From a virus (lineage: Duplodnaviria; Caudoviricetes): a stretch of 26,188 bases of DNA. Both the position numbers and the translations under genes were made by a program. Shown here piece after piece: positions 1-19,193 of this stretch; position 1 is the stretch's first letter, and every line of letters begins with the position of its first letter. The stretch is from IMG/VR virus record IMGVR_UViG_3300032116_001160, positions 1 through 26,188 of that record. One strand, written 5' to 3'. A model generated the notes under the pieces. The model was not told the DNA's origin. It made no database searches and saw only the letters and a program-made list of their open reading frames with translations.

Positions 1-137
1 TGGATAATAAAATAATTACCGATTTATACGGAGTAGAGCACATCATCATAGACCGAGGTAATGGCGAATTTACCTCTATGCCTAAAGCGGTATGGGATGA
101 ACAGCAAGCAAAACAAACTGAAGGGGGCCTAATCTAA
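1..137 (+). CDS. Small cassette-partner protein (5' end cut by window edge), paralogue of 1299..1448
   Basis: Read by hand: (M)DNKIITDLYGVEHIIIDRGNGEFTSMPKAVWDEQQAKQTEGGLI*; TAA at 135-137 overlaps the next ATG; shares VEHxIIDRGNGE(F/Y)TSM with 1299..1448. Confidence 0.85.
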   Translation, partial: DNKIITDLYGVEHIIIDRGNGEFTSMPKAVWDEQQAKQTEGGLI

Positions 138-1297
138 TGGCAACAGGACGCGTACCTACAACGGCGAACTCGCCGCTTACCGCAAAGGGTGATCTATTCA
201 CCTATAGCACTACACAGGCTCGCCTCGCAGTAGGCAACAACGGCGACACACTTCTGGCAGATAGTTCCGCCACAACGGGACTTCGTTGGCAAGGCAATTT
301 CGCCGCTGGGAAGAATAAGATTATTAACGGTGATTTCAACATTAACCAAAGAGGATTTACTTCTACAACTTCCACATTTGGTTACAATTTTGATAGATGG
401 ACATTTGCTAGAACGGGCGGTAGTTTAACTCTTTCGGCTGAAACTTTCACTCCTGGAACTGCACCTGTTGCTGGTTACGAAAGCAAGAATTTTGTGCGTT
501 GTGCTATTAGCGGACAGTCGGCAGCGGCTGATAGATTTATTTATTCACAAGCAATTGAATCAGTCCGAACATTTGCTAATCAGACAATCACAGTATCATT
601 CTGGGCAAAAGCATCAAGCGGAACTCCGTCCGTTGCTGTCAGCGTAGTTCAAACTTTTGGAAGCGGCGGTTCACCTTCTGGAGACGTTCAAACTGCTGGT
701 GGCAAAATAGCAATTACTACATCTTGGGCTAGATATTCTGTAACTTTTGCGGTTCCCTCAATCTCTGGCAAAACAATCGGAACAGCAAACGACGATGCTC
801 TTAATGTTAGATTGTGGACTTCTGCAGGAACAGATTTCAACGCCCCCACGAACTCATTAGGTATTCAAAATGCAACTATTGATTTTTGGGGCGTTCAGGT
901 TGAAGCAGGCTCAGTAGCAACCGCCTTCCAAACTGCGACAGGCACACTCCAAGGCGAGTTAGCCGCTTGCCAGAGGTATTACTGGCGAGCAGGTGGAGAT
1001 AGCGGTTATCAACCATTTGGCTTGGGCAGAGCAACGGCAACAACTACCGCAACAATGTTAATTAATAATCCTGTGCCAATGAGAACCAAACCATCATCGG
1101 TTGATTTTGCTAATCTTGGGCTTGGTGATTTTGTTTCAGTTTCCTCAAGTTTAAGCGGATTGACGCTGGATTATGCTGGAACAACGACTAGCACAGTAAA
1201 CGTTACAGGTGCTTCAGGATTGACAAGTGGAAATTTAATGGTCATTAGAGCAAACAATTCTACGTCTGCTTACATCGGAATGAGTGCGGAGTTATAA
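137..1297 (+). CDS. Tail-fibre/adhesin-like virion protein with putative carbohydrate-binding (jelly-roll) domain
   Basis: N-terminal AKGDL...RLAVG...ADSS motif; KNKIINGDF, SFWAK, WARYSVTF, GVQVEAGSVATAF and ELAACQRYY motifs typical of phage fibre CBM-like modules; S/T/G/A-rich. Confidence 0.7.
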   Translation: MATGRVPTTANSPLTAKGDLFTYSTTQARLAVGNNGDTLLADSSATTGLRWQGNFAAGKNKIINGDFNINQRGFTSTTSTFGYNFDRWTFARTGGSLTLSAETFTPGTAPVAGYESKNFVRCAISGQSAAADRFIYSQAIESVRTFANQTITVSFWAKASSGTPSVAVSVVQTFGSGGSPSGDVQTAGGKIAITTSWARYSVTFAVPSISGKTIGTANDDALNVRLWTSAGTDFNAPTNSLGIQNATIDFWGVQVEAGSVATAFQTATGTLQGELAACQRYYWRAGGDSGYQPFGLGRATATTTATMLINNPVPMRTKPSSVDFANLGLGDFVSVSSSLSGLTLDYAGTTTSTVNVTGASGLTSGNLMVIRANNSTSAYIGMSAEL

Positions 1298-1298
1298 A

Positions 1299-1448
1299 AT
1301 GAACTATGAAATCATTGAAGTGGAATTAACTGACGGCACAAAAGTAGAACACGTCATTATTGACCGAGGCAACGGCGAATATACCTCAATGCTGAAAAGC
1401 ACTTGGGATGAACTAGAAGCCGCCAAAGAAAACGGCACAATCTCGTAG
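1299..1448 (+). CDS. Small cassette-partner protein (49 aa), possible fibre chaperone
   Basis: Read by hand: MNYEIIEVELTDGTKVEHVIIDRGNGEYTSMLKSTWDELEAAKENGTIS*; directly follows the fibre-like gene; paralogue of 1..137. Confidence 0.85.
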   Translation: MNYEIIEVELTDGTKVEHVIIDRGNGEYTSMLKSTWDELEAAKENGTIS

Positions 1449-1453
1449 AATTC

Positions 1454-1469
1454 TGATAATCTAACGGAA
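1454..1469 (+). promoter_or_regulatory. Extended -10 promoter for a leaderless recombinase mRNA
   Basis: TG-A-TAATCT (1454-1462) matches TGnTAnnnT; spacing places +1 on the A of ATG 1469; no clear SD upstream. Confidence 0.55.
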
Positions 1470-2257
1470 TGGAAGAAATACCGTTAGAAGTAATCCGTGA
1501 GAAATTAGAGTCACGGTACAAAACACAAGGCTATTCAATGGCCTTATTTCGCAACGACTGGAATATGTTGATGCGCTTGGGGGTACATCCCCAGAATGCC
1601 ACCGTGGATGATTTCCAGCGCCTATTGCTTGGAGTCAATGCAAGTTCGACCAAAGGCACCTACGCAGCCCGCCTACGCTCCACATTCAAGGCAATGCGCA
1701 AGATGGGCCTGATTGATAACAACTCAATTGAAGATTTACCCAATGTGCGCAAACCGCGTGGCCTGCCACATCCGATAACTCCAAACGAAGCCAAGATGCT
1801 GATGACAGAAGCCAGGCAGCCAATGCGCGATTGGTTCATTTTGGGATGTATGGCTGGCCTTCGTGCAATGGAAGTTGCCAACCTTCGTGGGGTTGATTTA
1901 GAGCAGGCTGAAGATGGCTACGTTCTACGCATTGCAGGCAAAGGCGGCACTGACCTATCAGTGCCAGTTGCAAAGACTGTGGCTGAAACAATCCTTGCCC
2001 ACAATACAAATGGCAGATTGTGGACAGTATCGCCAAACCGCCTGACAAAGAAAACATCAGCGGAAATGAAAAGACTTGGCATACCCAAGAAAACCTTTCA
2101 CGCTTGCAGACATTATTTTGCCACTACGATGCTTGAAAAATCAGGTGGTGATTTACTAGCAGTCAGAGATTTGATGCGTCATTCAAGTGTTGCAACCACA
2201 CAGGTGTACACACAACTTTCAACAGGACGCACAAGGTCTTTGGTCAATCTAATCTAA
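1469..2257 (+). CDS. Tyrosine recombinase (compact XerC/D-like, no arm-binding domain)
   Basis: Catalytic motifs GLRAME (R), GKGG (K), HACRH (HxxR), MRHSS (H), TQVYT (Y); 262 aa. Confidence 0.93.
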   Translation: MEEIPLEVIREKLESRYKTQGYSMALFRNDWNMLMRLGVHPQNATVDDFQRLLLGVNASSTKGTYAARLRSTFKAMRKMGLIDNNSIEDLPNVRKPRGLPHPITPNEAKMLMTEARQPMRDWFILGCMAGLRAMEVANLRGVDLEQAEDGYVLRIAGKGGTDLSVPVAKTVAETILAHNTNGRLWTVSPNRLTKKTSAEMKRLGIPKKTFHACRHYFATTMLEKSGGDLLAVRDLMRHSSVATTQVYTQLSTGRTRSLVNLI

Positions 2258-2271
2258 ACATCGGGGGATGT

Positions 2272-3351
2272 ATGAGATTTCACGTAGTAAGCCTGCCACA
2301 CACGCAGGTAACAAAAGAATTTAGCGGTTGTGCTTTCACAGAGAAGGTGCGCCGCTTTTGCATAATGATGACCAGCCTTGGTCACGAAGTTTATTTGTAC
2401 GCTGGCGAAAAGGTTGATGCGCCAGTTACAAAACTCATTACCTGTATCTCAGAAGAGCGACGGGCGCAGGCAGTTGGCAACGGCCACTACACATCGGCAA
2501 GTTTTGATACCAATGCTCTGCACTGGAGAATCTTCAACACCAATGTGATTAGGCTGATGCAAAGCCATATCCAGCCGCAAGATTTTATCTGTCTCATTGG
2601 CGGATATGCCCATAAAGAGATTGCTGATAAATACCCCAATCACATCAGCGTTGAATTTGGCGTTGGTTATGGCGGTGTCTTTAGCAAGTTTCGCGTTTTT
2701 GAATCATACGCCTGGATGCATAGCATCTATGCAGGACACAAAAACCCAACAGCAGTTGATGGTCAATTCTTTGACACTGTGATTCCTGGGTACCTAGAGC
2801 CAGAGATGTTTCCACTTGGCAAAGGTGATGGCGACTATTACCTGTTCATTGGTCGCTTGATTGAACGCAAAGGTTTTCGCATTGCTCAAGAAGTATGCGA
2901 AAGATTGGGCAAAAGACTTATCCTTGCAGGACCTGGTGAACAATCAGGATATGGAGAGTTTGTTGGCTCAGTGGGGCCAGAGCATCGGGCAGAACTAATG
3001 GGCGGTGCAATCGCAACCTTTGCTCCAACTCTCTACATTGAGCCATTTGGAAACGTGGTGATTGAAGCCCAAGCCTGTGGTACTCCAACAATCACAACCG
3101 ATTGGGGAGCATTTACTGAAAACAATATCAACGGTCTAACAGGCTACCGTTGCAGAACGCTGCAAGAGTTTATGGATGCAGCCGAAAAGGTCAAAGAACT
3201 AGACCGAAAGAAAATCAGAGAACATTCTGTTGGCAGATACAACTTAGATGTTATCGCCAAAGAGTACGAAGATTACTTCCTCAGACTGTCAACCCTCTGG
3301 GATGACGGTTGGTATCACTTAGCAGAAAAGGCAGGCAATGAGTCTATCTAA
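2272..3351 (+). CDS. Glycosyltransferase, GT-B fold (GT4-like)
   Basis: LFIGRLIERKG, EPFGNVVIEAQACGTPTI (ExFG...E motif), GLTGY; N-terminal GHEVYLY. Confidence 0.92.
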   Translation: MRFHVVSLPHTQVTKEFSGCAFTEKVRRFCIMMTSLGHEVYLYAGEKVDAPVTKLITCISEERRAQAVGNGHYTSASFDTNALHWRIFNTNVIRLMQSHIQPQDFICLIGGYAHKEIADKYPNHISVEFGVGYGGVFSKFRVFESYAWMHSIYAGHKNPTAVDGQFFDTVIPGYLEPEMFPLGKGDGDYYLFIGRLIERKGFRIAQEVCERLGKRLILAGPGEQSGYGEFVGSVGPEHRAELMGGAIATFAPTLYIEPFGNVVIEAQACGTPTITTDWGAFTENNINGLTGYRCRTLQEFMDAAEKVKELDRKKIREHSVGRYNLDVIAKEYEDYFLRLSTLWDDGWYHLAEKAGNESI

Positions 3352-4726
3352 AAGACTTCGCGCAGCAGGTGAAAAGCGTGCGCAGAATCAGTTCGTTGAA
3401 CCATTGATTCCAGGCAGACCAGCGTATGCATCGCCTGCAGGAGTTGACGTCAACTCTGAAACAGCAGTTCGTATGTCAACGGTGTATGCCTGCGTTCGAC
3501 TCTTGGGCGACACGATTTCCTCACTTCCATTAGGTGCATATGTGCGCCGTGGTCGCAACCGTATTTCCTACGCTGCTGTTTATGGCGAGACACCAAACTG
3601 GGTCAATAATCCAAACCCAAGCACCACACGTCTTGAGTTCTACGAACAAATCATTGCTTCTTTGAACTTAGAAGGAAACGCTTTCATCCTCAAAGTTATG
3701 GATGAAATGGGCGAAGTTCTTGAACTCTATGTTCTCAATCCTCGCGATGTTCGTGTTGAACGTCCGATTGCTGGAGAACCTATTCGTTATTTTGTCCGTG
3801 ATAATTATGGAAACTTCTCATTTGAACTTAGCGCAAATGAAATTGTTCACATCCCACTATTTAGACTTCCTGGCCAATTACTTGGTCTAGGTCCAATCGG
3901 CGCAGCCAGAGTAACTCTTGGTTCTGCAATGGCCGCTGAAGTTTATGCTGCTTCATATTTTGGAAATGCTGCCAACCCTGGTGGCATTATCGAAACGCCA
4001 AGTGAGATGACGCAAGAGCAAGTTGATGACTTGGCTCGCGATTGGAATATCACTCACACTGGCCCATATAGAGCGGGCAAAATCGGTGTGCTAACAGGTG
4101 GAGCGTCTTTCAAGCCGCTTACCTTGAACGCTGCCGATGCCCAATTGCTTGAAGTACGACGCTTTGGGGTTGAGGAAATAGCCCGCCTATTCCGCGTTCC
4201 TATTTCGCTTTTGGGTCATCCTGTTGCTGGTGCAATGTCATTTGCATCAGTTGAAGCACAGAACTTATCGTTCGTGCAACACTCATTGCGTCCATTGTTG
4301 GAGCGCATTGAACAGGCTCTCTCTCCGCTACTTCCAGAATCAGATGGTTTTATCAAGTTCAATCTTGATGCGCTACTTCGTGGCACAACTCTTGAGCGCT
4401 ATGACGCTTACACAAAAGGACTTCGTGAAGGATTCCTCTCACTCAACGATGTTCGTGCTGTAGAAGATTTAGCACCGCTTGGCGAAGCAGGCGACCAATA
4501 CCGTGTTCCATTGCAGAATATTGATGCTGCAGATGCACCTGAAGTTGGTATGAAGTTGCGTGCTGAAATCATTGCTCAACTTGTTCAAGTTGGCTTTGAC
4601 CCAGCAGCAGTTCTCAAGGCTTTGGAGATGCCAAATATCAAGCACACTGGAGTTCCATCAACACAATTGCAGGCAGTCTCAACAATTGACCCTGCAAATC
4701 CTGAATCTGTATATGAGGTCAAATAA
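3338..4726 (+). CDS. Phage portal protein, HK97 family
   Basis: VYACVRLLGDTISSLPL, GNAFI, EIVHI, EEIARLFRVP, L(RP)LLERIEQAL, IKFNLDALLRG, NDVRAVEDL. Confidence 0.96.
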   Translation: MSLSKRLRAAGEKRAQNQFVEPLIPGRPAYASPAGVDVNSETAVRMSTVYACVRLLGDTISSLPLGAYVRRGRNRISYAAVYGETPNWVNNPNPSTTRLEFYEQIIASLNLEGNAFILKVMDEMGEVLELYVLNPRDVRVERPIAGEPIRYFVRDNYGNFSFELSANEIVHIPLFRLPGQLLGLGPIGAARVTLGSAMAAEVYAASYFGNAANPGGIIETPSEMTQEQVDDLARDWNITHTGPYRAGKIGVLTGGASFKPLTLNAADAQLLEVRRFGVEEIARLFRVPISLLGHPVAGAMSFASVEAQNLSFVQHSLRPLLERIEQALSPLLPESDGFIKFNLDALLRGTTLERYDAYTKGLREGFLSLNDVRAVEDLAPLGEAGDQYRVPLQNIDAADAPEVGMKLRAEIIAQLVQVGFDPAAVLKALEMPNIKHTGVPSTQLQAVSTIDPANPESVYEVK

Positions 4727-6282
4727 TGCCTTACTACATCTCAGATTCTCAAGGTGATTGCGATGGGTGGGCAGCAGTAAAAGAAGAATCAGATGGTTCG
4801 TACACAACCATTGGATGTCACGCAAATAAACAAGATGCGATTGACCAGATGGTTGCAGTTTCAATTTCTGAAGATATGGAACCAGGTGGAGAAATAAGAG
4901 CAGTTGATTTATCTGCTCCTTCCTTTGTTCGTGAAAACGCTGCACGTGGTTTGAAATATCTTGAAGAAGGTTTTGGGGGAGATGGCTTAACTGATGCCAC
5001 CAAGCGTGAAGCACGCGATATGGCAGCAGGAAGAATCTCAGAAAACAAGGTGCGCAAAATGGCACCGTGGTTTGCCCGCCATAAGGTTGACGGACAGGCA
5101 CCAAAAAACAGTGACCCTTCGCACGCTGAATATCCAGGAGCAGGCTTAGTTGCTTGGCTTCTCTGGGGCGGCGATTCCAACTTCAGTGACAGAGCGCAAA
5201 ACTGGGCGCAACGCAAGATTGACGCGCTGGATGCTGAAGCCGATTCAAGGAGCAAAATGAAGAAAATAGAACGCCGCACATATGTGGTGCAGGATGTGGA
5301 AGCACGCCAAGCAGAAGATGGCGTGATGCGTTTGTCAGGATACGCTGCAGTGTTCAACGATGCCAGCGTGCCACTACCATTCAAAGAGAGAATTGCACCT
5401 GGTGCTTTCCGTAAGACACTTACCGAAATGCCTGATGTCAGACTTCTTATCAATCACGAAGGATTGCCATTGGCTCGCACCAAGAATGGCACATTGTCAC
5501 TTACTGAAGATGAGCGTGGCCTTCGCTTTGATGCAGAACTTGCAGATACACAAGAAGCCCGCGACATCTATACCCTTGTTCAACGCGGCGATGTTGACCA
5601 AATGAGTTTTGCTTTCCGCGTCATCCGTCAGAACTGGAGCAAGGATAAGACAGAGCGCACACTGACTGAAGTTTCATTGGCAGATGGCGATGTCTCAGTT
5701 GTCACCTATCCTGCCTACCCAACGACATCAGTTGAAGCCCGCGAACATATCAAGAAGGCTTTGCAGGCAATCAAAGAAGGCCGCGAAGTAACTGGTGAAT
5801 CTTTGATAGTAGTTCAAGCAATTTTAGACAAGATTGATGAATCTTATGAATACCTTGGCGAAGGCAAATCAATGCTTGAAATGCTTCTTGGTGTACAACC
5901 TGAAGAACCATCAGATGTTGAACAACCAGAAGATGTAGAAGATGTTTTAGAAGAAGATTCACGTGCCGTTGATGTCGTCGGTGATTTTGTAGAATGGGAT
6001 TCATCAGGCGGAACCGCACGTGGCCGCATCGAACACGTAATGAGAGAAGGAGTTCTTGGAATTCCAGACTCTGACTTCTCCATCACCGCTGAAGAAGATG
6101 ACCCAGCAATTCTCATTCGCGTCTATCGCGAAGTTCGTGATGGTTGGGAAGCAACAGAAGTTCTTGTTGGACACAAAGCATCAGAACTTCGTGCAATTGA
6201 TGCGCTACCAGCACCAAGCGAAGAACAAAACAGAACAATCTCACTTCGTTTGGCGAAAGCAATTATCAACGCAAATAAATAG
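4726..6282 (+). CDS. Prohead (capsid maturation) protease, HK97 family, with extra N- and C-terminal domains
   Basis: Central GYAAVFN, ERIAPGAF, LLINH, LARTKNGTLSL.EDERGL, QMSFAF, DVSVVTYPAY; located between portal and capsid. Confidence 0.93.
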   Translation: MPYYISDSQGDCDGWAAVKEESDGSYTTIGCHANKQDAIDQMVAVSISEDMEPGGEIRAVDLSAPSFVRENAARGLKYLEEGFGGDGLTDATKREARDMAAGRISENKVRKMAPWFARHKVDGQAPKNSDPSHAEYPGAGLVAWLLWGGDSNFSDRAQNWAQRKIDALDAEADSRSKMKKIERRTYVVQDVEARQAEDGVMRLSGYAAVFNDASVPLPFKERIAPGAFRKTLTEMPDVRLLINHEGLPLARTKNGTLSLTEDERGLRFDAELADTQEARDIYTLVQRGDVDQMSFAFRVIRQNWSKDKTERTLTEVSLADGDVSVVTYPAYPTTSVEAREHIKKALQAIKEGREVTGESLIVVQAILDKIDESYEYLGEGKSMLEMLLGVQPEEPSDVEQPEDVEDVLEEDSRAVDVVGDFVEWDSSGGTARGRIEHVMREGVLGIPDSDFSITAEEDDPAILIRVYREVRDGWEATEVLVGHKASELRAIDALPAPSEEQNRTISLRLAKAIINANK

Positions 6283-7742: not shown

Positions 7743-7765
7743 TTAGAACGAACAACTAAATAGTT

Positions 7766-7831
7766 GTGTAGGGGCGGGCAGGAATCCCCCGACTTGCCCG
7801 CTCCTACACTTCCTAACGAATCGGGGGATTC
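7766..7831 (+). promoter_or_regulatory. 17-bp hairpin after the capsid gene whose loop can pair with the downstream RBS (pseudoknot/attenuator)
   Basis: Stem 7766-82/7793-7809 (two G-U); loop AATCCCCCGA (7783-92) is the exact reverse complement of TCGGGGGATT (7821-30), just upstream of GTG 7833. Confidence 0.7.
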
Positions 7832-7832
7832 A

Positions 7833-8516
7833 GTGAAAACAGGACATAAGGTTTCAATCGGCGCCTGCGACCCAGGCACCGTCAATGCGGCGTGGGCATA
7901 TCGGATGTTTCAACTCTGCCAAGACCGCCGCGACAGACTAGGGCCATTTGTCAGAATCAAAGGCTCTGGATTGCTTTCAAAGATGCGCAATCGTGTGGTG
8001 AAAGCATTTCTTGACAATACAGATTCTGATTGGCTTTTGTTGATTGATGTTGATGAACAACTCACCACAGAAGCATTTGATATTTTGATTCAAGCCGCTC
8101 ACGATAAAGAGCGACCAGTTGTATCAGGTTTAGTATTTGCAGCCTTTGATGCACACAAACATTTATATCCAAAGCCTGTGCCAGCAATCTTTCAAGATGC
8201 ACCTGAAGGATTCTTGCCGCTTTTCAAGTATGACCAGAATCGTTTGTTTGAAATTGACGCCTGTGGCACTGGATGTGTTTTGATTCATCGCAGCGTGTTA
8301 GAAAAGATGCGAGAGCAAGCAGACCCTAATCAAGGCCAAGATTGGTGCTGGTTCTGGGATGGTCCAATTGAAGGCAATTGGATTAGTGAAGATTTGCTGT
8401 TTTCCCGTCGTATAAGACAATTAGGCTTTCCAATCTATGTTCACACTGGAGCGGTATTGCCACATCAAAAGTCTTATTGGCTATCAGAGGAACATCACCT
8501 ATCGTGGAAAGAATAA
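7833..8516 (+). CDS. Glycosyltransferase, GT-A fold (GT2-like); start revised to GTG 7833
   Basis: RNRVVKAFL, WLLLIDVD (DxD), ACGTGCVLIHRSVLEKM, SEDLLFSRR, H-x-K; GGGGG SD before GTG; the longer ORF runs through the hairpin. Confidence 0.88.
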   Translation: MKTGHKVSIGACDPGTVNAAWAYRMFQLCQDRRDRLGPFVRIKGSGLLSKMRNRVVKAFLDNTDSDWLLLIDVDEQLTTEAFDILIQAAHDKERPVVSGLVFAAFDAHKHLYPKPVPAIFQDAPEGFLPLFKYDQNRLFEIDACGTGCVLIHRSVLEKMREQADPNQGQDWCWFWDGPIEGNWISEDLLFSRRIRQLGFPIYVHTGAVLPHQKSYWLSEEHHLSWKE

Positions 8517-9610: not shown

Positions 9611-9783
9611 TGAGTTACACAGTAAATTCTGACCGCTTTGCTCTAAAGGCCAAAGGTGAGTCAGTATCCGATAAAGAACTGCTTGAAGCAGGATGCAACA
9701 TTCCAGCACTCATTGCTGGTGGCCATCTTGTGTCAGCACAAACACCGAAAGCAGCACCGACACAAGAAGGAGACACTAAATAA
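9610..9783 (+). CDS. Hypothetical protein (57 aa)
   Basis: Read by hand: MSYTVNSDRFALKAKGESVSDKELLEAGCNIPALIAGGHLV...; AGGAG SD; TAATG overlaps at both ends. Confidence 0.75.
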   Translation: MSYTVNSDRFALKAKGESVSDKELLEAGCNIPALIAGGHLVSAQTPKAAPTQEGDTK

Positions 9784-10196
9784 TGGCACGCATCGTTCTT
9801 ACTGATGCATCTATAGTTATCAACTCAGTTGACCTATCAGACCATATTGCCAGCGTGACAATCTCAACATCAGAAGATGTTATTGACACCAGCGCATTCA
9901 GTTCCACAATCGCAGCAGGCCGTACACGTGTATCTGGTCTTGCTGACAATTCCGTAGCCCTAGAGTTCCACCAGGATTTTGCAACATCCTCGGTTGAGCA
10001 AACAATTTATCCGCTTCTTGGTAGCACAACAACCGTTGTTGTAAAGCCAACAAGTGCAGCAGTATCTGCAACAAATCCTTCCTACACATTCACTGCTCTT
10101 GTTTCAGAATGGCAAGAGTTGTCAGGTTCTGTGGGAGAATTGGCCACTGCAAGTGTGACTTGGCCAATTTCAGGCGCTATCACAAAAGGAGTATAA
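9783..10196 (+). CDS. Major tail (tube) protein, copy 1
   Basis: DLSDHIASVT, RVSGL, EFHQDF, NPSYTFTALVSEW, GSVGELATASVTW; position before the chaperone and TMP. Confidence 0.85.
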   Translation: MARIVLTDASIVINSVDLSDHIASVTISTSEDVIDTSAFSSTIAAGRTRVSGLADNSVALEFHQDFATSSVEQTIYPLLGSTTTVVVKPTSAAVSATNPSYTFTALVSEWQELSGSVGELATASVTWPISGAITKGV

Positions 10197-10200
10197 GTAA

Positions 10201-10623
10201 ATGGCCCGTATTGTTTTAACTGATGCGTATGTGGTGTTGGCAAGCACTGACATCTCGCAATATGTCACATCCGTGACTCTTTCCTCAACACTCGATGTTG
10301 TGGAAACAACAGGTATGTCAAACACCAGCCGCACCCGTGTTGCTGGCCTTCGTGACAACCAAATCACTCTTGAGTTCAACCAGGACTTTGCTTCTGGCGC
10401 TCTTGAAACCTTGATTTATCCAAGCGATGCAGCAACAAAGATTGGTACAGCAGTTGCAATGACTGTAAAGCCAACCAGCGGTGCTACATCTGCAACCAAT
10501 CCTTCCTACTCATTCTCAGCGCTAATTTCAGAATGGCAATCAGTATCTGGAAGCGTTGGAGAACTCGCAACCGTATCGGTCACTTGGCCGATTTCTGGCG
10601 CAATTACAAAAGCAACATCCTGA
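10201..10623 (+). CDS. Major tail (tube) protein, copy 2 (paralogue)
   Basis: Colinear with copy 1: MARIVLTDA, EFNQDFA, ATNPSY.F.AL.SEWQ, SGSVGELAT.SVTWPISGAITK. Confidence 0.85.
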   Translation: MARIVLTDAYVVLASTDISQYVTSVTLSSTLDVVETTGMSNTSRTRVAGLRDNQITLEFNQDFASGALETLIYPSDAATKIGTAVAMTVKPTSGATSATNPSYSFSALISEWQSVSGSVGELATVSVTWPISGAITKATS

Positions 10624-14372: not shown

Positions 14373-16097
14373 ATGCCATTATGTCCACAGATTACTAACA
14401 CGCCAATCACGGTCACACAGACTGCTGATTTTACTGTTACATCTGTGATTCCTGTTGTCGCTGATACTACTGATGGCTTGGCTGCTAATTTTGATTCTAT
14501 TGAAACCGCTGTTAATGGAAAAAATAAAATATACCGTCAAACAACTGCCCCCACAGGTGATTTAACAATTGGCGATATTTGGTTTGATACTGATGATGGC
14601 AACAAACTCTATTACTGGACGGGAACTGCGTGGGTATCAGTTCAAGATAATGCCATTGCAACAGCCCAAGCAACTGCAGATAGTAAAATTAAGACCTTCT
14701 ATCAGGCATCAGCACCGACAGCATCTGAAGTTGGCGACATTTGGTTTGACACCGATGATGGATTCAAACAATATTTTTGGAATGGAACTGCTTGGACATC
14801 TGTTCAAGACACATCTATTGCAGCAGCACAATCAGCAGCAACCGCCGCCGCTGCCGCCGCCACTGCAGCCCAGACCACGGCTGATGGCAAGAATAAAGTA
14901 TTTCGCCAGACGTCAGCGCCTGCGGCATCGGCTGTTGGCGACCTTTGGTTTGATACTGATGATGACAACCGTATTTATCGCTGGAGCGGTTCTGCTTGGG
15001 TTGCTAATGACCTTGGCACAAATGCATTAGCAAATTTCAGTGCAAATAAAATTACCAGCGGAACTATTGATGCAAGCGTTGTTACGGTTTCAAATATCAA
15101 TGCTGGCAATATCTCAACTGGCACACTCAATGCTGACCGAATTGCATCTGCTTCTATCACTGGAACAAAAATTGCAGCGGCTACAATTGAAGCATCAAAT
15201 ATTGCAACTGGCACAATTACAGCAACTCAAATTGCAGCCAGCACTATCACTGGTGCAAAGATTGCTGCCGCAACAATCACTGCTGATAATATCGCCGCTA
15301 ATACTATTACTGCTTCACAAATTGCATCAGCAACAATTACTGCGACACAGATTGCTGCAGGAACGATTACCACAGACAAATTAAGCGCTGGAACTCTAAC
15401 AGGTTTTGTTGTTCAAACATCTTCTGGAACAACTGCAGTTACTCTTGATGGTGGAACAAACTCAATGTATTTCAAATACTTGGGTACCGTTTATGGTCAT
15501 ATTTTGCCAGCATCTTCAGGTGCTGTAATGATTCACTATGGCGCAACAGCAGACCCTGTTGGCAATTCTTATCCACAATTTTATGTTGGTGCGAGCGCAA
15601 TATCTCTTGCTCAAAGCACTACTCGTTATGCATTGATTGACAGCAGCGGTCTTGATGTTGGCGGAAGTATTGATGCAACTTTAGATGTAACTGCTGGACG
15701 TGACCTATTTACTCCAAACCATACAACGGTCACCGATGCCGCCAATGGCCGCGTTACTATCTCACTTGGCCGTGTTACTAGAAGCACTGCATCTAGTGAG
15801 CGTTATAAAGAAAATATCACGCCAGTTCGTAATATTGATGAATTAGACCCAAAGAAATTGTTGGATTTACCAGTTCGCGCATTTACTTACCGCGAAGATT
15901 ATCTCTCTGAATCTGATTCTCGCTTTGGTGCTTTGATTCCTGGATTTATCGCAGAAGAAGTTGATGCTGTATATCCTGTGGCTGCAGATTATGAAAACGG
16001 CGAAGTTGAATCGTGGAACGATAGAATGATTGTTCCTGGATTGCTGGCTTTGATTCAGGATTTATACAAAGAAGTTCAAATACTCAAGGGGGAATAA
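14373..16097 (+). CDS. Tail fibre/spike with C-terminal intramolecular chaperone (Peptidase S74-like)
   Basis: Three GDIWFDTDD repeats, decapeptide IAAxTITxxx repeats, C-terminal SSERYKENI...GFIAEEV...LLALIQDL coiled coil. Confidence 0.88.
   Translation: MPLCPQITNTPITVTQTADFTVTSVIPVVADTTDGLAANFDSIETAVNGKNKIYRQTTAPTGDLTIGDIWFDTDDGNKLYYWTGTAWVSVQDNAIATAQATADSKIKTFYQASAPTASEVGDIWFDTDDGFKQYFWNGTAWTSVQDTSIAAAQSAATAAAAAATAAQTTADGKNKVFRQTSAPAASAVGDLWFDTDDDNRIYRWSGSAWVANDLGTNALANFSANKITSGTIDASVVTVSNINAGNISTGTLNADRIASASITGTKIAAATIEASNIATGTITATQIAASTITGAKIAAATITADNIAANTITASQIASATITATQIAAGTITTDKLSAGTLTGFVVQTSSGTTAVTLDGGTNSMYFKYLGTVYGHILPASSGAVMIHYGATADPVGNSYPQFYVGASAISLAQSTTRYALIDSSGLDVGGSIDATLDVTAGRDLFTPNHTTVTDAANGRVTISLGRVTRSTASSERYKENITPVRNIDELDPKKLLDLPVRAFTYREDYLSESDSRFGALIPGFIAEEVDAVYPVAADYENGEVESWNDRMIVPGLLALIQDLYKEVQILKGE
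14517..15000 (+). repeat. Three tandem ~55-65 aa repeats (KxxxQxxAP...GD(I/L)WFDTDD...WxGxAW) in the tail fibre
   Basis: DNA cores ggcgatatttggtttgatactgatgat (14571), ggcgacatttggtttgacaccgatgat (14733), ggcgacctttggtttgatactgatgat (14937). Confidence 0.9.
15051..15390 (+). repeat. Decapeptide repeats (IAAxTITxxx) in the tail fibre shaft
   Basis: IASASITGTK IAAATIEASN IATGTITATQ IAASTITGAK IAAATITADN IAANTITASQ IASATITATQ IAAGTITTDK. Confidence 0.9.
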
Positions 16098-17757: not shown

Positions 17758-17846
17758 TTCTTCTCCTTTCGATTACATTTGCACGGAATATGAAAACCTT
17801 GCTGCCAATCAATCTGGCCGCATCGCTGACAGCGCCTAATTTCCAC
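17754..17846 (-). CDS. Cys-rich microprotein (30 aa)
   Basis: (M)EIRRCQRCGQIDWQQGFHIPCKCNRKEKK*; AAGGTGG SD; GTGA overlap with the RHH gene. Confidence 0.55.
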   Translation of the reverse strand: MEIRRCQRCGQIDWQQGFHIPCKCNRKEKK

Positions 17847-18039
17847 CTTCTGCCACCTTTTCACTCATAGTGCGAATCTGCTCAAATGCATTGGCGCAGA
17901 CTTGCAAGAGTTCAATTGCCACTAGGCAGGTGGCTTCCATTGTTTCGCCCCAACCATCGGCGACTGCTTCATTGAGTTTGTCTGCAACGTGAGTCATTGC
18001 AGTGGAAAGTTCTGCGTGTAGATTGCTCATCGCGCTCAT
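17836..18039 (-). CDS. Hypothetical protein
   Basis: ORF track; ATGA overlap within the leftward operon. Confidence 0.7.
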   Translation of the reverse strand: MSAMSNLHAELSTAMTHVADKLNEAVADGWGETMEATCLVAIELLQVCANAFEQIRTMSEKVAEGGN

Positions 18040-18233
18040 AGTTTTGCTTCGCTTATTATGCGCTTGATGGTATCTATACTGACATTATTGCGGTGCATTT
18101 CAGCAAGACCAATCACAAGATGGTAACTATCTTCTGCAGCATCCCAGAGAGATTCTTCATCAATGCCTTGTGCTGCTAAATAGCGGATTGCTTCTGTCTG
18201 ACGGTCAAGATAATAATTACCCATCGCGCTCAT
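18036..18233 (-). CDS. Hypothetical protein
   Basis: ORF track; GAAAGGT SD; ATGA overlaps. Confidence 0.7.
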   Translation of the reverse strand: MSAMGNYYLDRQTEAIRYLAAQGIDEESLWDAAEDSYHLVIGLAEMHRNNVSIDTIKRIISEAKL

Positions 18234-18349
18234 TTGATATTACCTTTCATCCAGCGCACTGCAAAGAATGCGACGATTGAAAACCAGAACCAGAACTGCA
18301 CCATCGCCTGCCAACCAGCAACGTGTGTGCCAAAGAGTAGGTCTAGCAT
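18230..18349 (-). CDS. Small membrane protein (39 aa)
   Basis: Read by hand: MLDLLFGTHVAGWQAMVQFWFWFSIVAFFAVRWMKGNIK*; GGAG SD; fills the operon gap. Confidence 0.65.
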   Translation of the reverse strand: MLDLLFGTHVAGWQAMVQFWFWFSIVAFFAVRWMKGNIK

Positions 18350-18552
18350 TGTTGAGTCTCCATTGTCTGTAATTGTTTGAAGAATTGCAGAGCATTCTTG
18401 AAACCTCTTATAGTTTCAATTACTTCAGAACCCTGGGTTGTGATTTTACCTATGTCATATCTTTGAACTGAATGGCCTGTTGGGTAATAACCGTACATAT
18501 AGAACTGACCATCTTTGCTTTCGCGATAACTCACGTATGTTCCTTTGTGCAT
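18343..18552 (-). CDS. Hypothetical protein
   Basis: ORF track; AAGGAG SD. Confidence 0.7.
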   Translation of the reverse strand: MHKGTYVSYRESKDGQFYMYGYYPTGHSVQRYDIGKITTQGSEVIETIRGFKNALQFFKQLQTMETQQC

Positions 18553-18644
18553 TATTTTTGCTCCTTTGAATAGTCACATTGATTGCCTGAACAGTTATGG
18601 CAGAGACAAGACTTCTTGATGAATCTATGGTCGCAACACTTCAT
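18552..18644 (-). CDS. Cys-rich microprotein (30 aa)
   Basis: MKCCDHRFIKKSCLCHNCSGNQCDYSKEQK*; AGGAG SD; TAATG overlaps at both ends. Confidence 0.6.
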   Translation of the reverse strand: MKCCDHRFIKKSCLCHNCSGNQCDYSKEQK

Positions 18645-18883
18645 TATGCAACTCTCCTAACGCCTGGATAAACACCTGAAGCAACATCATTTTCAACGTG
18701 CTTAACAACGCTTTGTGGTCTGATGTACCAGTGGTTCATATCGAATCGTTGAACTACACCATTGCGGATAACTTCATAACTAAGGTTTTCATAAACAAAA
18801 ATTGTTATGCGATGAGTTGAATCTTGCCACATAGCCAAGATTGCTGGACGTGGGGTGCTGTCAACTGAATATTTGATTTTCAT
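18644..18883 (-). CDS. Hypothetical protein
   Basis: ORF track; GAGGT SD; TAATG overlap. Confidence 0.7.
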   Translation of the reverse strand: MKIKYSVDSTPRPAILAMWQDSTHRITIFVYENLSYEVIRNGVVQRFDMNHWYIRPQSVVKHVENDVASGVYPGVRRVA

Positions 18884-19053
18884 TATGCATTTACCTCAAC
18901 AATCATTTCAGGGGTGTAATTGAAATCTATTGCTTTTGCGATTGCTTCATTGCGTGTATTGAAAAAATAAGTTGCAATTGCTAAACCGCTATCTGCTTCT
19001 AAACGCAACGTGTAACTATTTTGTTTGTTTTTGAAAACTACTGCCTGTGCCAT
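18883..19053 (-). CDS. Hypothetical protein, first gene of the leftward operon (start revised to ATG 19053)
   Basis: MAQAVVFKNKQNSYTLRLE...; purine-rich RBS; the longer ORF would run through the promoter. Confidence 0.65.
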   Translation of the reverse strand: MAQAVVFKNKQNSYTLRLEADSGLAIATYFFNTRNEAIAKAIDFNYTPEMIVEVNA

Positions 19054-19101
19054 TTTCTTCTTCCGTTTCCTGGAGTTACTGTGCTTGGCTCCAATAAGAG
19101 A

Positions 19102-19130
19102 ATTGAACCATCTATCCATACGATTGTCAA
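19102..19130 (-). promoter_or_regulatory. Leftward sigma70-type promoter
   Basis: Minus strand TTGACA-17 bp-TTCAAT with TG at the extended -10 position; the -10 deviates from TAnnnT. Confidence 0.5.
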
Positions 19131-19171
19131 TACAACCCCAGATTGCCACCGTCGGCGTGTCGCCCGTAGGC

Positions 19172-19193
19172 TGTCAGTCCCCTGGGTCATACT
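19172..19193 (+). promoter_or_regulatory. Rightward promoter resembling the actinobacterial RecA-NDp/PafBC type
   Basis: TGTCAG-N10-CATACT versus consensus TGTCRG-N10-TAnnnT; 24 bp upstream of the first rightward gene. Confidence 0.5.

Follow-up and report, generated by a model that had tools for sequence, protein, structure and literature searches.

A 26,188-nucleotide (nt) stretch of DNA from a tailed phage (IMG/VR virus record IMGVR_UViG_3300032116_001160, Caudoviricetes; the whole stretch is called the window below) begins with a tail fibre gene, its small partner gene and a tyrosine recombinase. Analysis of this locus and its relatives suggests, with a probability that we put at about 0.5, that the recombinase exchanges modules of the fibre (a domain resembling a carbohydrate-binding module, CBM, and a tip domain together with its partner) with co-infecting genomes, at sites whose spacers match. 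The features concerned are listed below; coordinates are those of the window, except those prefixed C1, which refer to the full record G001.

1–137, plus strand: partner gene A, partner of the upstream fibre A; open reading frame (ORF) 3–137 is open at its 5' end, with 44 amino acids (aa) in view and the start codon likely cut at the contig edge
C1:3–944, minus strand, at the other end of record G001: upstream fibre A, with site B' at C1:108–137 (spacer CAGGGA)
137–1297, plus strand: fibre B, 386 aa (phrog_4492 tail fibre, E 1.7e-63; CBM_4_9, E 2.5e-6)
242–271, no strand: site A, GGCGACACACTT-CTGGCA-GATAGTTCCGCC, spacer 254–259 (codons L40-A41); its homologue in the sister-clade shufflons described below is their crossover site
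320–907, plus strand: CBM-like domain of fibre B (residues ~62–257), the module between sites A and B
938–967, no strand: site B, ACAGGCACACTC-CAAGGC-GAGTTAGCCGCT, spacer 950–955 (codons Q272-G273), where the helix that leads to the tip begins
980–1297, plus strand: tip domain of fibre B (residues ~282–386), with partner B the module between sites B and C
1299–1448, plus strand: partner gene B (49 aa), whose product is predicted to bind the tip trimer and is likely a tip cap or an assembly chaperone
1431–1460, no strand: site C, AACGGCACAATC-TCGTAG-AATTCTGATAAT, spacer 1443–1448, with a weak right arm; it fills the space just before the recombinase start
1469–2257, plus strand: tyrosine recombinase, 262 aa, without an arm domain (PF00589, E 4.1e-14), with intact catalytic residues and under purifying selection

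The gene calls of the first-pass annotation of the window (a partner ORF, the 386-aa fibre, the 49-aa partner, a gap of 20 bp and the 262-aa recombinase) are all in place, and the two partner genes are paralogous, as it had stated (76% identity over 78 nt). Its further suggestion that an array of such cassettes runs on to the left of the window did not hold, as the upstream sequence contains one more fibre only and no silent cassettes. The full record (33,967 bp) ends with a terminase, a 116-aa ORF, a 655-aa collagen fibre, a 109-aa ORF and a fibre gene cut by the contig end, and in 3 of 4 runs a contig, the inner letters of which were not seen, bridges a fibre motif and window position 1 over ~350 nt, i.e. 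the length of one tip. Thus, the array comprises only two fibre-partner pairs, located between the terminase and the portal. Summed contig depths from the comparison of runs and contigs were left out of the evidence.

Fibre B consists of a short N-terminal part, a β-sandwich, for which the fold search identified CBM22 and CBM4 as similar structures, a helix and the tip domain, which had no clear match among the matches listed. Structure prediction places partner B on the tip trimer with a score of 0.78 (best control 0.13), with at least 90% of the contacts shared between runs and a partner pLDDT of at least 78; 116 of 157 solved complexes and 2 of 215 mismatched pairs attained the mark used, counts that are only roughly valid here. 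With the partner predicted to bind the tip trimer, the segment from B to C would be one physical unit. The partner is likely a chaperone, judging by one partner in a related array that belongs to the PF16778 tail assembly chaperones. The units delimited by the sites are sub-gene modules (the domain; the tip plus partner), and not the whole adhesin and partner that the first-pass annotation regarded as the moving unit.

Recombinase-type sites at the domain borders of the fibre

Where the first-pass annotation reported no recombination site within the window, three were found. They exhibit the 12+6+12 bp arrangement of tyrosine recombinase sites, and A and B lie in frame at the borders of the fibre domains. 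A matrix derived only from 74 intergenic palindromes of the sister shufflons places C (1435), B', A (246) and B (942) at ranks 1, 5, 6 and 7 of 33,925 positions, and when spacer lengths of 4–8 were compared, only 6 brought all three window sites to the top in the first 1.5 kb. With a second matrix with 12-bp arms, whose training set included C-type arms and neither A nor B, the sites B, A, C and B' rank 1–4 of 33,909 genome positions; B, A and C rank 1–3 in the independent genome G002, and the sites rank 1, 3, 6 and 8 in the more distant G003.

Shuffling of synonymous codons in the window yielded P-values of 0.004 for A and 0.0055 for B; in each group of A and B sites the observed score was reached in 0 of 2000 synonymous shuffles, and the paralogous ADS motifs of the upstream fibres stayed at the control level (1687 and 684 of 2000). 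Thus, the protein sequence does not account for A and B. The outer four arm bases, which were not used for picking the sites, also score above the shuffles (0 of 300), five distant fibres sharing the protein motif score from -8 to -31 (2 of the 7 outgroup fibres had no motif to score), and codon conservation in the TCGTAG group amounts to 92–100% over most site codons versus 45–78% in the 5' flank of B. B sites score higher beside an enzyme (mean 6.2 versus 2.2, P 0.03, for non-independent sequences). Of 150 recombinase genes, 125 have a half-site within the preceding 100 nt, compared with none of the 150 control stretches, and the half-site also occurs at 32 of 54 partner ends that lack the enzyme (controls: 2 of 54); at the partner ends it is read in differing frames.

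Two other interpretations of these elements were considered. DNA conservation of the ELAACQRYY motif had been taken as proof of action by the neighbouring enzyme, but it persists without a neighbouring recombinase, and the motif was later explained as site B. That the palindromes are mere terminators is not favoured because the same arms flank the in-frame sites, although they may serve as terminators in a second role.

Inversion shufflons in sister clades

Related loci were collected by three scans with recombinase queries, which gave 226 loci, or 185 after removal of repeats; each scan kept the best 80 matches and one query came from a shufflon clade, so the proportions given here are biased. 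Among the 113 loci with at least 1.3 kb of upstream DNA, 54 have fibre genes in direct orientation, 52 have inverted tip cassettes and 7 have neither; of these seven, six are immediately preceded by a partner-like gene associated with the tail, and a distance of 2.8 kb separates the remaining one from a fibre. The idea that the enzyme goes with the fibre module is hence borne out (fibre family upstream in 106 of 113). Downstream genes and backbones differ between the loci, while the position in the tail module is kept across several backbones.

The 52 loci with inverted cassettes belong to sister clades, with enzymes 70–77% identical to that of the window, and represent shufflons of the Rin/Rci type, with silent tips in both orientations and one invariant core. 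The recombinase of these relatives likely inverts the spare tips. A constant fibre gene is followed by 0–3 silent cassettes of tip and partner (47 complete arrays), and palindromes with a 6-bp centre occupy the junctions between cassettes. In 135 sites picked by the protein motif, GTAGCG is 99–100% invariant per base; the bases to its left follow the slot and the bases to its right follow the tip, which places the crossover in these six bases. The ADSS junction, suggested in the first-pass annotation as a crossover place, is indeed where these shufflons cross over. L030 has, in silent and inverted form, a cassette that L090 expresses, the two copies being identical over 732 nt starting at the spacer; a cassette 98% identical over 781 nt occupies different slots in L170 and L019, and the layouts E+S-S- and E+S+S- differ by one inversion, all these arrangements being compared between contigs and not within one clone. 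The reads for shufflon locus L088, seen as contigs only, gave thin and patchy cover by other strains, and the joint 5181–5975 fits a one-cassette strain and not an inversion. The 125 cassettes fall into 109 clusters, so cassette content turns over between genomes, and the arrays shrink and grow. Three loci of the shufflon clades (L017, L105 and L135) possess the constant gene and the recombinase and no silent cassette. Tree support is weak as to whether the window's clade descends from a shufflon ancestor.

The window locus shares with the Rin/Rci shufflons the arm-less tyrosine recombinase beside a receptor-binding gene. Silent tip cassettes without a start were not found in it, only two full-length fibre genes, and neither was the same crossover core in inverted orientation: the four sites of this genome carry four unlike spacers, none of which is the reverse complement of another. 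With no silent tips and unlike spacers, the window cannot invert anything. Recombination by Cre and Xer needs spacer identity; if this enzyme has the same requirement, neither inversion nor deletion in cis is expected with four unlike spacers. This bears on the proposal of the first-pass annotation that the enzyme excises, reorders or swaps same-orientation cassettes within this genome, which could operate via relaxed pairing of B' with B and which we regard as very improbable. There are two direct paralogues, each with a B-type site, their spacers (CAGGGA and CAAGGC) agree at 4 of 6 bases, and L002 has the CAGGGA spacer before the window's tip; against this, there are only two pairs, and in all 13 loci that have two B sites (several of them near-duplicates) these carry unlike spacers. 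No excised circle was proven among the joints listed from 4 runs, in which contigs are unable to show absence and the 987-to-1 joint fits the linear neighbour.

Mosaic fibre modules and the proposed exchange

Exchange between phages is suggested by the modules themselves, in which like arms and unlike spacers flank a module, as in cassette exchange with heterospecific sites. The spacers at A, B and C form recurrent triplets: 32 of 114 modules have GTCGCG/CAAGGC/TCGTAG and 18 have GTAGCA/CAAGGA/CACACC, and a further 14 and 14 match these at B and C with A not found, so that two triplets account for 78 of the 114 modules if those without a visible A are counted. Both spacer groups contain phages that carry the enzyme (15 of 50 and 15 of 34) alongside others that lack it. 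Six haplotypes with a 98–100% identical enzyme carry five different tips and domains that are mostly unrelated. Pairwise comparison (144 pairs of 162 modules, which are not independent) assigned 71 of 86 switch points to stretches surrounding A, B and C that make up ~360 of 1,800 nt, with 5 inside the domain and none inside the tip. The domain of the window is 97.6% identical over 224–973 to that of L235, a phage with a different backbone and no recombinase, while its tip matches L002, and both matches switch at the last base of spacer B.

The following mechanism would account for these data. The enzyme would bind the 12-bp arms and cross over in the 6-bp spacer, as the sister shufflons suggest. 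By analogy with Cre and Xer, unlike spacers would block deletion or inversion inside one genome, and like spacers on two genomes in one cell would recombine; two crossovers (A+B, B+C or A+C), or one crossover plus homologous recombination, would then move a module, and the exchange would change host binding. Phages that keep the sites without a recombinase could be served in trans, and some clades may have stored silent tips in cis, by which the system would have become an inversion shufflon.

Several observations weigh against this exchange. The co-occurrence of recombinase and array is weak in the reverse direction: of the 61 fibre relatives whose downstream DNA is long enough, only 8, the window's own record included, have the enzyme there, and among loci with the window's site C it is in view in 13 of 61, while relatives and loci without the enzyme are mosaic too. 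Only 31 of the 86 switch points fall within -20 to +26 of a mapped spacer; at A most pairs diverge 24–36 nt to the left or 24–36 nt to the right of the spacer, so the breakpoints are compatible with spacer-matched exchange between molecules but scattered. The A spacer of the window (CTGGCA) is a minority type, the segment common to the window and L235 begins ~24 nt left of it, so that this border was not made at spacer A, and at B the window spacer differs from those of both putative parents. Clustering of switch points at domain borders is also expected from selection for working proteins. As to the sites, the resemblance in the arms of A and B was initially noticed by eye, which makes the tests above tests of a chosen idea, the related sequences are non-independent and their group P-values optimistic, the right arms of B and C fit the palindrome matrix poorly, and DNA conservation extends ~10 nt past the right arm of B. 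Finally, the recombinase is conserved in six loci that have a single site, so the enzyme has a use without A and B.

An alternative that accommodates much of this is that homologous recombination at conserved blocks makes the mosaics, with the action of the enzyme confined to site C and with A and B as inherited sites that gene conversion keeps uniform. An enzyme acting only at C could resolve genome dimers in the manner of Cre/Xer, mediate circularisation, perform a single crossover behind the tail module or repress itself. The scatter of the switch points, the mosaics in recombinase-less phages, the single-site loci with a conserved enzyme and the exonuclease and RusA-like genes that the phage itself encodes all speak for it. 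Gene conversion, however, leaves unexplained why the same inverted arm motif, with the arms exactly 6 bp apart, occurs in three unrelated coding contexts and why tandem B sites differ in their spacers, and a site of type A is the crossover point in the sister clades. We therefore hold this alternative to be unlikely, albeit the one to be taken most seriously, and prefer spacer-matched exchange by the enzyme.

Conservation and distribution of the recombinase

The recombinase exhibits the R-K-H-R-H/W-Y signature of PF00589 (R132, K158, H211, R214, H238 and Y247), which is invariant in 124 of 124 distinct relatives, and the predicted structure comprises the core-binding and catalytic domains without an arm domain, in agreement with the first-pass annotation, which had called it an intact enzyme of this kind. 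The best fold match is the Brujita integrase (5vfz); XerA and an integron integrase are also among the best matches (2a3v for the latter; in length, 262 aa compare with 313 aa for the 2a3v chain). The ratio of non-synonymous to synonymous substitution rates (dN/dS) is 0.01–0.09 in cassette-less loci, similar to 0.04–0.09 in shufflon loci, and the comparison with L004 shows 51 synonymous and 2 non-synonymous changes. A decayed relic is ruled out by the invariant catalytic residues and the purifying selection. The 8-bp repeat TAATCTAA flanking the recombinase gene was considered as an insertion scar and rejected, as it is present only in the window's own clade among the 226 loci and absent from the empty allele. 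A promoter scan found no sigma-70 promoter before the recombinase; that site C overlaps a promoter is a guess made by eye.

In L344 and L362 (84% identical to the window over 2255–4893, from the glycosyltransferase to the portal), site C is joined directly to the glycosyltransferase gene, and in L370, which has another backbone, it is joined directly to the next gene, also without a recombinase. These empty versions likewise count against the proposed exchange. Together with the sites at 32 of 54 fibre loci that have no enzyme, they would fit a scenario in which the sites are vestigial or are bound by a different protein, of the host or of the phage, and the recombinase travels behind site C as an optional hitch-hiker. 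We consider this improbable in view of the strong purifying selection, as seen against L004, the six invariant catalytic residues and the fact that a top-scoring site stays beside the gene where it has moved (L025, L042).

Several single loci illustrate the variety of arrangements. In L138, L147, L150 and L151 (31 nt upstream of the recombinase) and in L042 (83 nt) a near-perfect site with two arms and a 6-bp spacer follows a different set of tail paralogues, neither A nor B sites are among the top scores, and the enzyme is nonetheless conserved. In L025 (5876–6700) the recombinase is inverted relative to the fibre; 2.8 kb lie between it and site C, and it has a site of its own just past the stop codon. 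Its neighbours, classified by eye, resemble glycosyltransferase and sugar-metabolism genes. The right arm of the window's site C overlaps, in most of the 73 loci that carry this site (L310–L382), the start codon of a putative lysin-like gene.

The nearest annotated relatives of the recombinase, among the 40 listed of 503 tblastn matches, are integrases of mycobacteriophages and Gordonia phages (~30% identity). This similarity and the best fold match to 5vfz could indicate that the enzyme is an arm-less integrase serving lysogeny, for which site C would be attP, and the missing arm domain, which the first-pass annotation had used as an argument against an integrase, loses its force, since arm-less integrases exist (PMC6109161). 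Even so, we judge this role to be the least probable of those considered. The tail-module position is kept across several backbones, there is no duplicated core at the empty site, and a scan of 185,579 genomes of GTDB, with sensitivity limited by the use of two short patterns only, gave no close relative (3 matches, 25–42% identical on parts). In line with the first-pass annotation, which had remarked on the lack of a nearby repressor, no repressor match was obtained among the 35 scanned ORFs, a set that left out most of the small leftward ORFs at 17.8–19.2 kb. A plasmid search gave only matches under 60% identity (~25–32% in the 10 matches listed).

Other features of the phage

The phage is siphovirus-like, with profile matches to an HK97-type portal and capsid and to WhiB, and the first 3.4 kb of the window are present in 20 public runs labelled as freshwater or fungus metagenome. 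From the WhiB gene and the habitat we infer an actinobacterial host. The gene next to the locus lies outside the system:

2272–3351, plus strand: glycosyltransferase

A second glycosyltransferase (7764–8516) and the 655-aa collagen fibre (G001:C1:1267–3234) are also encoded within the virion module, which possibly points to glycosylated side fibres. The gene at 14373–16097 encodes a separate tail protein, as had been annotated, with 30-nt tandem repeats at 15141–15358 and a weak match to Peptidase_S74 under Pfam's cut-off. Two tandem paralogues of the major tail tube protein (9783–10196 and 10201–10623, 74% identical over 149 nt) recur as a pair in relatives. The 518-aa prohead protease (4726–6282) possesses additional N- and C-terminal domains (Hva1_TUDOR-like match at 419–465), and small leftward ORFs cluster at 17836–19190, before the divergent point.

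Significance and relationship to known systems

Whether phage mosaicism involves dedicated linker sequences or results from chance and homologous recombination is an old question, which becomes testable here, since the locus names an enzyme, three sites and their spacers. If true, the proposed exchange would be a new kind of trade between phages and would explain how they track the surface diversity of the very abundant lake Actinobacteria. Modular gene sharing in lake actinobacterial phages has been described, with no mechanism given in the accessible part of the report (PMC10202952). On a broader view, which we advance tentatively and at somewhat less than even odds, freshwater actinophages might practise a community-wide, site-specific trade of receptor-binding modules, with one recombinase family, sites placed in frame where fibre domains meet, spacer triplets delimiting exchange groups that span unrelated backbones, a recombinase-less majority served in trans, and the in-cis shufflons as a derived special case. 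Even a cautious reading extends the tyrosine shufflons by a large, free-living phage family with more than 100 different tips, and provides a compact recombinase that has orthogonal spacers of natural origin.

The closest described system is the Rin shufflon of the Bifidobacterium prophages Bb423phi1, Bl157phi1 and Bl30698phi1 (PMC6109161). Like the window, it combines an arm-less tyrosine recombinase beside a receptor-binding gene with a crossover site inside that gene and another past its 3' end, and like the sister clades it has a constant N-terminus and silent C-termini in both orientations (PMC6109161). Rin uses one repeated 11-bp site (PMC6109161), whereas here the site consists of two arms and a 6-bp spacer and each tip has its own partner gene; the window, compared with Rin by description only, differs further in having no silent tips and three sites with different spacers. 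Rin was not among the 40 listed of the 503 tblastn matches to the recombinase, and no other tyrosine shufflon of phages was found in the literature searched, which mostly excluded subscription papers. Tail-fibre inversion is also carried out by Min of p15B, Cin of P1 and Gin of Mu (PMC6109161). As here, a variable fibre tip is switched behind a constant part; those enzymes are, however, serine invertases acting in cis, whereas here the enzyme is a tyrosine recombinase and the window has no invertible segment. For Min, Cin and Gin, the tip and its chaperone form the moving unit.

Rci of R64 is a tyrosine recombinase with asymmetric sites, and the silent cassettes of the sister clades likewise have a poor left arm (mean -9.2 versus 2.3 at the constant gene); Rci differs in acting by in-cis inversion on a plasmid pilus adhesin, and it is likened here by description, not by sequence. 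Integrons, represented by the fold match 2a3v, similarly have a large pool of cassettes common to many genomes beside a tyrosine recombinase. Integron integrases, however, act on attC cassettes, while here there is no attC-type array, the modules are in-frame parts of genes and the sites look double-stranded and symmetric. The arm-less actinophage integrases of the Brujita type (5vfz) are the nearest annotated family (~23–31% identity), but they sit by a repressor and attP, neither of which was found here among the ORFs and sites analysed.

In the same literature, neither natural heterospecific exchange in phages nor a paper on this recombinase family was found. Recombinase-mediated cassette exchange with heterospecific lox or FRT sites is a laboratory method, in which, as proposed for the locus described here, one enzyme acts on like arms and unlike spacers that flank a module, and the exchange takes place between molecules, as it would here. 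The lox and FRT version is engineered, whereas the arrangement in the window is natural.

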